From Escherichia coli (GTDB lineage Bacteria; Pseudomonadota; Gammaproteobacteria; Enterobacterales; Enterobacteriaceae), in NCBI RefSeq assembly GCF_041248615.1, contig NZ_CP158427.1: a stretch of DNA of 64,000 bases. One strand, given 5' to 3'. This document shows positions 6,001 to 9,000 of this stretch, in pieces. Each line of letters opens with the position of its first letter. Position 1 is the first letter of the stretch. A program made the position numbers.

Positions 6001-9000
6001 GGCGGTGAGTTCAGTCACAACGCCGAATTACAGTTTTCTCGGGTACAGCGGCACGATGAAAGTGACGCCCGATCGCATCACGGACTACAAAGCACCATCG
6101 GCAGAAGAGGCTGCCATCGCCAGCCAGGCCGCGAAGCGTCCGCCGGTAGTCAACTATCCGGGGGAAGGTTTCCGGGAAATGACAAAGGCACAGTGGGCCG
6201 CCCTGCCCCGGGACTGTAAGGCCGTGCGCAGTGTGGCAGAAGCAGAAGACCACGGGGCATACCGCTACCGCCGCACAATGGACAATAATTTCCGCCTGGT
6301 GAATGTGTATATCACCGACATGAAAATCACGGAAATCCCACAGAAATAAGGTATATCCCCCCGGGAAATCCCCGGGGGATGACGGAGATAATGACATGCA
6401 CAGTCAGTTAAGAGAACGTATCCGGCTGATGCGCGCAAGGCTGGATAACGCCGCGCCGGTTGCTGAAATCCGGGCTGAATCTCAGCTTTTTGTGACTCCT
6501 GCCCCGGTCTGTGATCGCCTGGTGACGCTGGCGGAAATCAGCAACCGTGATCACATTCTGGAACCCTCTGCCGGCACCGGGGCCATACTGCGGGCGATTC
6601 GGGATACCGCGCCGGAGGCCATGTGTGATGCGGTGGAGATTAACAGCGGGCTGGTCCGGTATCTGCGGGAAAATTTTAACGGTGTCAGGGTACAGTGTGG
6701 CGACTTCATGGAATGGCAGCCGGTGCAGTATTACAGCCGGATCATTATGAATCCGCCGTTCAGTCACGGGCAGGATATCCGGCATATCCTGCGGGCTTTT
6801 TCCCTGTTGCGTCCGGGGGGCGTGCTGGTTGCCGTCTGTCTCAACGGGCCGCGCCAGCAGGAGAAGCTGTTACCGTTTTCTGACGTCCGCGAGGAGCTGC
6901 CGCGCGGCACGTTTGCTTATACCGATGTCCCGACGATGATTATTCGTTTGCGTGCCTGATGACACAGGGCTGGCGGGAGGATAAATGCCCGTCTGTCCGC
7001 ACCGGGAAAAGACCGCGCGCCGGTGGCGCTGAAAGGGGCCGCGCTCACGCGCCGCCCCTTTCATTACGCGGACGTTCTGATGGGGGCTTCTGTCTTTTCA
7101 GACCTGTCATTTGTCTGTTACTGATGATGTTGTTGTTCCTGCTACTGCTACTGCTACTGCTACTGCTCTTCTTTTTCCTGCCGCTCTGATTCTGACTACT
7201 GCAGTGTTGTCCTGTCTGCCGGGCGCACCTTCGGCTCCCGGCTGCCTGGCGGCATCCGGTCGTCAGGCCCGACTCCGACAGGCAGCTGCTGGCGCACCCG
7301 CCAGTCTCCGCCGAACCCGCTGGCGCGGTTTCGGGCTGTCGCTACGGTCCGATGCGTGAAAACCCCGGGCTTGCAGCGACCGTTCCGGTCGCGCCGCCTC
7401 TGTCGCGCCGTGGCCTGCGCTCCAGGCATCCCGGCAAAAAGACGCCGGGATGTAAGGCGCAACGCCGTTTCGCAAACCGCGCTTCACGTCGTTGCGGCGG
7501 GTCCCTGCCCGTTGTTGTGTCCGGTGCCATTCACCTGTTTAAGCCCCTGTCGCCGGGGGCTGATACAGCCACAACCTGCCGCACCTGTCCAGGGTAAATG
7601 AACAGCCCACAAAATTTTTTACCCAAAACCCGGTAAAAAATTTTGCGTTCTGCCCAGGACAGGTGCGTCAGGCCGTGGCAGTGATGCCCCATGCGGCGAA
7701 GGTTCTCAAACAGGTGATGGTGAATACCGGAGGGAACAAAGAGCAGGTCCCCGCAAAACGTCAAAACCGCGGCTCCCGAAACTCAACAGATGATGGGGGC
7801 TGAAAACATCAACAGAAGGAGACACATCATGGCAGTTCGTGGCATTAACAAGGTCATTCTTGTCGGTCGTCTGGGAAAAGATCCGGAAGTCCGTTACATC
7901 CCAAACGGGGGCGCAGTGGCAAACCTGCAGGTGGCCACGTCAGAAAGCTGGCGCGACAAACAGACGGGGGAGATACGGGAGCAGACAGAATGGCATCGCG
8001 TGGTGCTGTTCGGCAAGCTCGCGGAAGTGGCTGGTGAGTATCTGCGCAAGGGCGCGCAGGTCTACATCGAAGGTCAGCTTCGCACCCGTAGCTGGGAGGA
8101 TAACGGTATCACCCGTTACGTCACCGAAATTCTTGTTAAGACCACGGGCACCATGCAGATGCTGGGACGTGCCGCAGGTACTCAGACTCAGCCGGAAGAG
8201 GCGCAACAGTTCAGCGGTCAGCCTCAGCCGGAATCACAGCCGGAACCGAAAAAAGGAGGCGCGAAAACGAAAGGCCGTGGACGTAAGGCCGCGCAGCCGG
8301 AGCCTCAGCAGCCGTCTGAACCCGCGTATGACTTCGATGACGACATTCCGTTCTAACGAAAGACAGTGACAACCGCCCCGTCCAGTGCGGGGCATCACCG
8401 GAGAGATGAGGATGAGCGAATATTTCAGAATACTTCAGGGACTGCCGGACGGTCCTTTTACCCGCAAACAGGCCGAAGCCGTTGCCGCACAGTACCGGAA
8501 TGTCTTTATCGAGGATGATCAGGGAACGCATTTTCGCCTGGTTGTCCGTCAGGATGGCACGTTGATCTGGCGCTCCTGGAATTTTGAGGACTGTGCCGGG
8601 TACTGGATGAACCGGTACATCAGGGATTTCGGGATTCTTAAGTAAGAGAGGTGCCGGACGCGCGAACGTCCGGCAGGACATAAGCAATTATAAGGGGATG
8701 ATTATGCCTGTAACGAAGTGTGAACCAGAAACCACCCGCAAAGCAAGCCGTAAATCTGTAAAAACGCAGGAAACTGCACTGTCTGCCCTGCTGGCGCAGA
8801 CGGAGGAAGTGAGCGTGCCGCTGGATTCACTGATTAAATCACCGCTGAATGTGCGCACGGTGCCGTATTCTGCGGAGTCCGTCAGTGAACTGGCTGATTC
8901 CATTAAGGGAGTCGGCCTGCTGCAGAATCTGGTTGTTCATGCCCTGCCAGGTGACCGTTACGGTGTCGCCGCAGGTGGTCGCCGACTGGCAGCACTCAAC

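Follow-up and report, generated by a model that had tools for sequence, protein, structure and literature searches.

A length-polymorphic hexanucleotide array beside a predicted Frpo2/ssp1b-type promoter in the leading region of an F-like plasmid of Escherichia coli

The closest described relatives of the element considered here are the bacterial simple-sequence repeat (SSR) or variable-number tandem repeat (VNTR) loci used in multiple-locus VNTR analysis (MLVA typing). These loci consist of perfect head-to-tail units between conserved flanks, vary by whole units and turn over faster than their flanks accumulate substitutions. The same properties are found in a (CTGCTA)n array located in a stretch of 64,000 nucleotides from E. 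coli (contig NZ_CP158427.1, assembly GCF_041248615.1), called the window below. The window belongs to an F-like (IncF, MOBF, MPF_F) conjugative plasmid, and the array lies in its leading region. The typing loci are chromosomal, whereas the array is carried by a conjugative plasmid backbone and enters no typing scheme.

Another related type is represented by the contingency loci of Haemophilus, Neisseria and Campylobacter, which share with the array an SSR of hypermutable length near an expression signal. Simple-sequence repeats near promoters can act as switches, as in the contingency loci of Haemophilus and Neisseria. The array differs from them in that its 6-nt unit keeps the reading frame, it is not located within a gene or between the hexamers of a promoter, and no evidence of a switch was obtained.

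The leading regions of F and ColIb-P9 reportedly carry single-stranded-DNA (ssDNA) promoters of the Frpo/ssi/ssp1 type (Masai and Arai 1997; PMC9849209; bioRxiv 10.64898/2026.01.09.698686). The repeat abutting the array resembles these Frpo/ssp1 promoters in its core, 91-94% identical to Frpo1/Frpo2 of F, and in a long hairpin of the transferred strand (T-strand). Neither the hairpin nor the segment shared with F (7360-7830) includes the array itself, which is no part of the promoter.

The best explanation, to which we assign a probability of about 0.7, is that the array is a slipped-strand VNTR situated in a non-coding, unstructured linker and has no phenotypic role. In the searchable literature, no report was found of the repeat sequence or of tandem repeats in IncF leading regions.

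The array and its variation in unit number

The elements forming the variable tract are as follows.

7139..7168, + strand: hexanucleotide microsatellite (CTGCTA)4 followed by CTGCTC (direct reading, Tandem Repeats Finder (TRF), shuffles; polymorphic in homologous loci)
7124..7138, + strand: trinucleotide runs (ATG)2(TTG)2 TTC beside the array, of which (ATG)2(TTG)2 occupies 7124-7135 (length-polymorphic)

The array is real and exceeds chance expectation. TRF reports it at 7139-7167 with period 6, 4.8 copies, 100% matches and a score of 58. It is the longest perfect period-6 tract of the window (29 nt; 300 shuffles gave a mean of 13.8 and a maximum of 18). The transferred (-) strand reads it as (TAGCAG)n.

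The initial annotation had described (CTGCTA)4 and a terminal CTGCTC directly abutting copy 2 of a large direct repeat, and this description is accurate, the high-identity repeat beginning at 7170. Its statement that the equivalent position is unexpanded in copies 1 and 3 agrees with a three-way alignment, in which copy 1 reads ...TATCTACTGCTCTGA and copy 3 reads ...TTCCTGCTCTGA. The further claim that a microsatellite marks one repeat copy only is valid within the window and fails elsewhere, since the flanks of the other copies hold microsatellites of their own in other plasmids. Weak similarity of the three flanks extends ~60 nt further upstream of the array, which thus lies within a degenerate 5' fringe of the repeat and not cleanly outside it.

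Variation was assessed in plasmids and metagenomes. A 271-nt query around the array matches 4510 PLSDB plasmids, 2317 of which cover most of the query, and the spans of these records differ by multiples of roughly 6 nt. Eight of the plasmids were read directly. Seven have clean arrays (9, 4, 14, 3, 8, 8 and 4 units), and the eighth has 6 units after an irregular ATGCTA unit (L008). Scanning of metagenome contigs with a 24-nt left-flank anchor, which includes the first ATG of the tract, yielded at least 120 loci; zero matches to the array flank were obtained from viral contigs.

The parsed set comprises 124 phylogenetically non-independent loci, taken from the window, from complete plasmids and from metagenome contigs of gut or wastewater origin. 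Their complete arrays, among which very long ones could be under-represented by short-read assemblies, contain 1 unit in 12 cases, 2 in 15, 3 in 15, 4 in 22, 5 in 22, 6 in 13, 7 in 10, 8 in 8, 9 in 4, 12 in 2 and 14 in 1. The distribution is unimodal and of the stepwise type, with no interruptions. One further complete plasmid carries 15 units (sequence-verified). In the same loci the adjacent runs vary as well, with ATG present 1-2 times and TTG/TGG 0-4 times.

Unit number changes on otherwise identical sequence. Among the 97 loci with complete flanks, groups sharing both the 300 nt upstream and the 150 nt downstream without a difference contain arrays of 3/4/7/7/14, 4/4/5/6/8, 7/8/9 and 4/5/9 units; the flank haplotype of the window itself occurs with 4, 5 and 9. 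In the 60 complete plasmids nearest to the window, with 99.3-100% identity across 4 kb, the spans imply about 3 to 15 units; counts of 15, 12 and 3 were verified by sequence in plasmids whose identity to the window across 4 kb is at least 99.6%. Two versions, A (that of the window) and B, exist for the initial ~170 nt of the downstream repeat, and the whole span of array lengths occurs with either. A single span is shared by nine records of one 131-kb plasmid lineage, so over short clonal timescales the array is stable. Together with the differing counts on identical flanks, this indicates stability in recent clones and turnover far above that of flanking substitutions, as is typical of a microsatellite that mutates stepwise.

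The array therefore shows two features of a VNTR, namely tandem copies of a short unit beyond chance and whole-unit variation on conserved flanks. The expectation that unit number varies between isolates is borne out, with 1-15 units and with differences on identical 300+150-nt flanks and between near-identical plasmids. Invariance across related plasmids, which had been named in advance as the result that would speak against it, was looked for and not found. Unit polymorphism and turnover on identical flanks are direct observations. Slippage as their mechanism is suggested by the population pattern, and the array is probably neutral.

In E. coli and Klebsiella, resistance genes are carried chiefly by IncF plasmids, whose backbones often resemble one another too closely to be separated. 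At least 12 different lengths, together with differences between plasmids at least 99.6% identical, make the array a possible cheap, high-resolution marker of plasmid sublineages.

Several individual loci depart from the common structure. In one metagenome locus (L111), homology ends after one unit (CTGCTACTG, continued by TGTAAGCGGCTCACC...), which suggests an insertion or rearrangement at the array. The array of another (L036), CTGCTACTGCTACCTACTG, contains a 1-nt irregularity. Several close relatives (H61, H62, H87, H88, H120 and L007) have a group II intron (ltrA) inserted in the 4 kb that surround the array and ssb.

The adjacent repeat and the pyrimidine-rich spacer

The array is enclosed between a GC-rich hairpin and the second of three ~640-nt direct repeats, which are 96-99% identical over their first 300 nt.

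3848..4489, + strand: direct repeat copy 1, an extra Frpo-type copy 5' of the DUF3560-methyltransferase operon, array unexpanded (alignment)
7170..7810, + strand: direct repeat copy 2, homologue of F Frpo2/ssp1b, 5' of ssb (repeat alignment, identity to F, fold)
12566..13206, + strand: direct repeat copy 3, homologue of F Frpo1/ssp1a, 5' of ygeA-like and DUF932 genes, array unexpanded (alignment, identity to F)
7030..7063, + strand: GC-rich hairpin 3' of the methyltransferase gene, terminator-like without a U-tract (fold)
7086..7200, + strand: pyrimidine-rich, essentially unstructured spacer holding the array, purine-rich on the T-strand (composition, fold)

Neither the repeat core nor CTGCTA arrays were found by an exact-pattern search of F. 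In a BLAST comparison with the F plasmid (NC_002483.1), the core of copy 2 (7360-7830) is 94% identical over ~470 nt to the region 5' of ssb (F 58174-58644) and 91% identical to the region 5' of the ygeA homologue. These F regions are the ssDNA promoters Frpo2 and Frpo1 (Couturier et al., PMC9849209), named ssp1b and ssp1a by Fraikin et al. (bioRxiv 10.64898/2026.01.09.698686). Folded as DNA, the - strand of 7080-7830 reaches -199.5 kcal/mol (z = -11.8); the T-strand hairpin of copy 2 occupies about 7399-7790 and has a core stem at 7467-7782. Homology to Frpo1/Frpo2 and the long stable stem-loop of the transferred strand are the features expected of an Frpo/ssp1 promoter, and copy 2 is predicted to be one of the Frpo2/ssp1b type.

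In different plasmids, the A and B versions of this initial ~170-nt part of the repeat appear at the positions of copies 1, 2 and 3, a pattern that suggests gene conversion.

The spacer contains 71% pyrimidines, versus 48% window-wide. Its fold is no better than that of shuffled sequences (z-scores of -1.4 on the + strand and -0.45 on the - strand), and the array appears unpaired in the centroid T-strand fold read by eye. Self-structure of the array on either strand was rejected on these grounds. No match at E<=1 was returned by Rfam on 7000-7200. Upstream, the segment 7015-7085, which contains the GC hairpin with its 10+4-bp stem, folds at -36.7 kcal/mol. Terminator prediction does not call this hairpin as intrinsic. 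The segment is constant across loci with differing upstream genes and moves together with the spacer and the repeat.

The initial annotation had proposed that expansion could alter spacing upstream of the ssb-proximal element. The distance between the hairpin and copy 2 does shift by up to about 84 nt; none of the tests made here indicated that this spacing matters. No sigma-70-type promoter is predicted in 6800-7900, and a promoter-spacing switch was rejected for this reason. The promoter hairpin proper lies 230-300 nt downstream of the array.

A stalled replication fork could be considered as a cause of slippage. The replication roadblock described in F is ssp2, located upstream of an ArdB-like gene (bioRxiv 10.64898/2026.01.09.698686). 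As ssp2 is an element other than Frpo2/ssp1b, slippage induced by stalling behind that roadblock lacks support and was rejected.

The 5' fringe is unstable in other copies and other plasmids too. It is pyrimidine-rich before all three copies (67-72%). In other plasmids, the fringe of copy 1 varies by (TTC)n, (TTG)n and 9-mers, and that of copy 3 by an 18-nt duplication. F carries (TTCCTCTTC)5.2 at the equivalent position beside the ssb-proximal element (NC_002483.1; L129 8016-8062). At least 5000 records match the promoter core, and those listed are IncF plasmids. One more distant MOBF plasmid was compared, from Salmonella (NZ_CP126326.1), whose core is 87% identical; it has (CTGTTC)4.7 at the same position (L133 711-738). 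Different microsatellites with units of 3n nucleotides at one site indicate a recurrent nursery beside Frpo-type modules, of which CTGCTA is the version of this lineage. The 5' fringe of ssDNA promoters can accordingly be flagged as a recurrent site of repeat instability, which is relevant to work on leading-region expression.

F is devoid of the DUF3560-methyltransferase segment, and by eye its Frpo2 flank matches the copy-1 flank of the window (3848-7810 vs L129 7840-8645). Recombination between two Frpo-type copies, with loss of the stretch between them, could account for this arrangement.

Origin of the array and alternative explanations

Formation of the array could have started from a proto-repeat of 1.5 units (CTGCTACTG), still present in alleles with n=1. 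It would have been located in a period-3, pyrimidine-rich tract in the 5' fringe of the Frpo2/ssp1b-type repeat and expanded there. Whole 6-nt units would be gained and lost via slipped-strand mispairing during DNA synthesis, far faster than point substitutions arise in the flanks. Such changes would resize the unstructured linker between the GC hairpin and the promoter module, most probably without phenotypic effect. This reading is backed by the absence of coding, double-stranded promoter and structural signals in the tract. Nothing observed points to a regulatory role of the array itself.

The coding question has to be considered separately, since open reading frames (ORFs) do cross the array.

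6959..7189, + strand: 76-codon ORF in which the array is read as poly-Leu, overlapping the methyltransferase stop (ATGA); judged spurious

PGAP calls this ORF, or a second frame at 7111-7359, a hypothetical protein of varying length in several plasmids. If the tract were translated, it could encode a micro-protein M(M)LLF(LL)nLFFFLPL* or a longer one, a hydrophobic helix tuned by the array, with like tails before each Frpo-type copy. Each of the three copies is indeed preceded by an open frame (3790-3867, 7085-7189 and 12517-12585) whose Leu/Phe-rich tail terminates at one shared, conserved TGA. All length changes observed are multiples of 3, and T shows phasing outside the array, with its peak at codon position 2. 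Translation is nevertheless improbable, at roughly one chance in ten by our estimate. The only constant start, ATGATG at 7124-7129, has no Shine-Dalgarno sequence before it in a direct reading, and the apparent conservation of its first ATG is uninformative because the metagenome anchor held that ATG. Upstream starts and frames are not conserved. The ATG of the 76-codon ORF at the methyltransferase stop is often AAG across loci, 14 loci have a shorter open frame with a different ATG start, and some contexts have wholly different upstream genes before the hairpin and spacer. Over the 105 nt that precede the array, polymorphic sites are spread evenly among codon positions (10:9:11), compared with 1:0:7 in the 3' end of the methyltransferase gene. 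The tail contains Leu-to-Pro changes, the common TGA is TCA in 7 arrays on 6 contigs, so that the stop is lost, and one locus has the 1-nt irregularity in its array. The ORF also sits after a strong hairpin and before a promoter, and it has no Pfam match. A conserved start and frame and codon-biased polymorphism, as expected of a poly-Leu protein, were thus not observed, and a coding tract was rejected as the principal explanation on the basis of ORF conservation, codon-position polymorphism and Pfam. We conclude that the ORF calls over the array are artefacts of the T/C-rich tract.

Database entries over the array include WP_250880519.1, WP_206287151.1, WP_069040897.1, WP_074441970.1, WP_154670364.1, WP_283570452.1, WP_021538344.1 and WP_001365577.1. 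The lengths of several of these hypothetical proteins follow that of the array, as with the ORF starting at the methyltransferase stop, and the entries are probably annotation artefacts. The array would explain this cloud of annotations, which differ only in poly-Leu length.

Three observations weigh against a neutral, slipping VNTR. The T content of the three flanks outside the array is 0.39/0.69/0.28 by codon position, a bias reached in 0/5000 permutations; this phasing is coding-like and is not predicted for a purely neutral spacer unless the tract is a coding relic. All length-variable units seen (ATG, TTG, TTC, CTGCTA, CTGTTC, TTCCTCTTC and an 18-mer) are multiples of 3. In diverged plasmids, microsatellites are found again at the corresponding position beside Frpo-type modules, and this recurrence could reflect selection on the length or composition of the tract. 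The T phasing and the 3n units would both be accounted for, with no present function, if the tract descended from a former coding 3' end that was duplicated along with the repeat.

Selection on the tract may be imagined in two forms. In one, the pyrimidine-rich tract serves as a spacer or insulator whose length is selected and adjusted by the array, and which might keep the purine-rich T-strand linker unstructured, letting the promoter module fold independently of the upstream hairpin, or might supply a Rho-utilisation (rut)-like C>G RNA ending read-through from the upstream operon. The pyrimidine-rich tracts before all three copies, the unstructured state of the tract between two strongly structured elements, the different microsatellites at the same site in F and in the Salmonella MOBF plasmid and the joint movement of hairpin, tract and repeat across upstream contexts are consistent with such a role. 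Its length, however, varies by about 84 nt with no evident favoured value apart from a broad peak at 4-5 units, no covariation supports a length constraint, and the CTGCTA unit adds no YC dimers, which counts against improvement of a rut site; we regard this role as unlikely. The other form is broader and also improbable: the 5' fringe of every MOBF Frpo/ssp1 promoter would be a selected, pyrimidine-rich period-3 element that spawns 3n microsatellites (CTGCTA here, CTGTTC in the Salmonella plasmid, TTC and TTCCTCTTC in F), and it would either encode a translated hydrophobic micro-peptide of variable length that stops at the shared TGA or, through its length, tune the mutual insulation of leading-region operons on the incoming single strand.

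A contingency (phase-variation) locus switching expression of the ssb operon has the general precedent of SSR switches near promoters in its favour. The properties of such loci, a shift of frame or promoter spacing with on/off expression, were not found here. A 6-nt unit cannot shift the reading frame, no -35/-10 pair flanks the array, and the operative promoter is an ssDNA hairpin 230-300 nt or more downstream, which makes switching very improbable. An assembly or sequencing artefact could be suspected from the many metagenome contigs that end shortly after the array. These breaks are accounted for by the three-copy 640-nt repeat that follows; whole-unit variation is also present in finished plasmids, and arrays of up to 90 nt are shorter than typical reads. 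The chance that the array or its variation is such an artefact is negligible.

Plasmid context and other repeats

The gene order near the array was obtained from Pfam and from PGAP annotation of relatives.

4988-6349: DUF3560 gene (Pfam, PGAP of relatives)
6396..6959, + strand: class I SAM-dependent methyltransferase, the last clear gene before the spacer (Pfam MTS, Methyltransf_25; PGAP)
7790..8356, + strand: ssb, longest ORF, annotated in relatives from about 7829 (PF00436, E = 2.8e-37)
15342..15358, - strand: oriT nic-site sequence GTGGGGTGT/GGTGCTTT (exact match, 0.02 expected)

The sequence GTGGGGTGT/GGTGCTTT is the nic sequence of F oriT. Its position on the - strand means that this strand is transferred and that the + strand genes of the leading region point toward oriT.

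Further RNA elements were detected by Rfam. The sok antitoxin RNA is matched at 11973-12149 (+), between psiA and copy 3, with 88.9 bits, a score that exceeds the gathering threshold; this match indicates a putative toxin-antitoxin system of the hok/sok (flm) type. Just 3' of copy 1, a near-threshold match to AS-pc01 (antisense to pHK01_035) occupies 4610-4711 (-), with 73.1 bits against a gathering value of 79. Weak, mutually overlapping matches on both strands (leaders, miRNAs) cluster at 14381-14520, between the DUF932 gene and oriT; the cluster points to a strong palindromic or hairpin element.

Two more short-unit repeats are present in the window. The hexanucleotide repeat (ACCGGT)4.3 at 57213-57238 lies inside an 88-codon ORF of the - strand (57090-57356). 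A perfect 9-nt repeat, AACAGCCGC x6.9 at 44455-44516, encodes (QQP)6 in the C-terminal region of a TraD-like ORF of 732 codons (42597-44795); it is in-frame and likely variable between plasmids. The (QQP)n repeat resembles the CTGCTA array in its 3n-unit type of length variation and is carried by the same plasmid, whereas it is located inside a demonstrable gene and the array in a tract with no coding signature.

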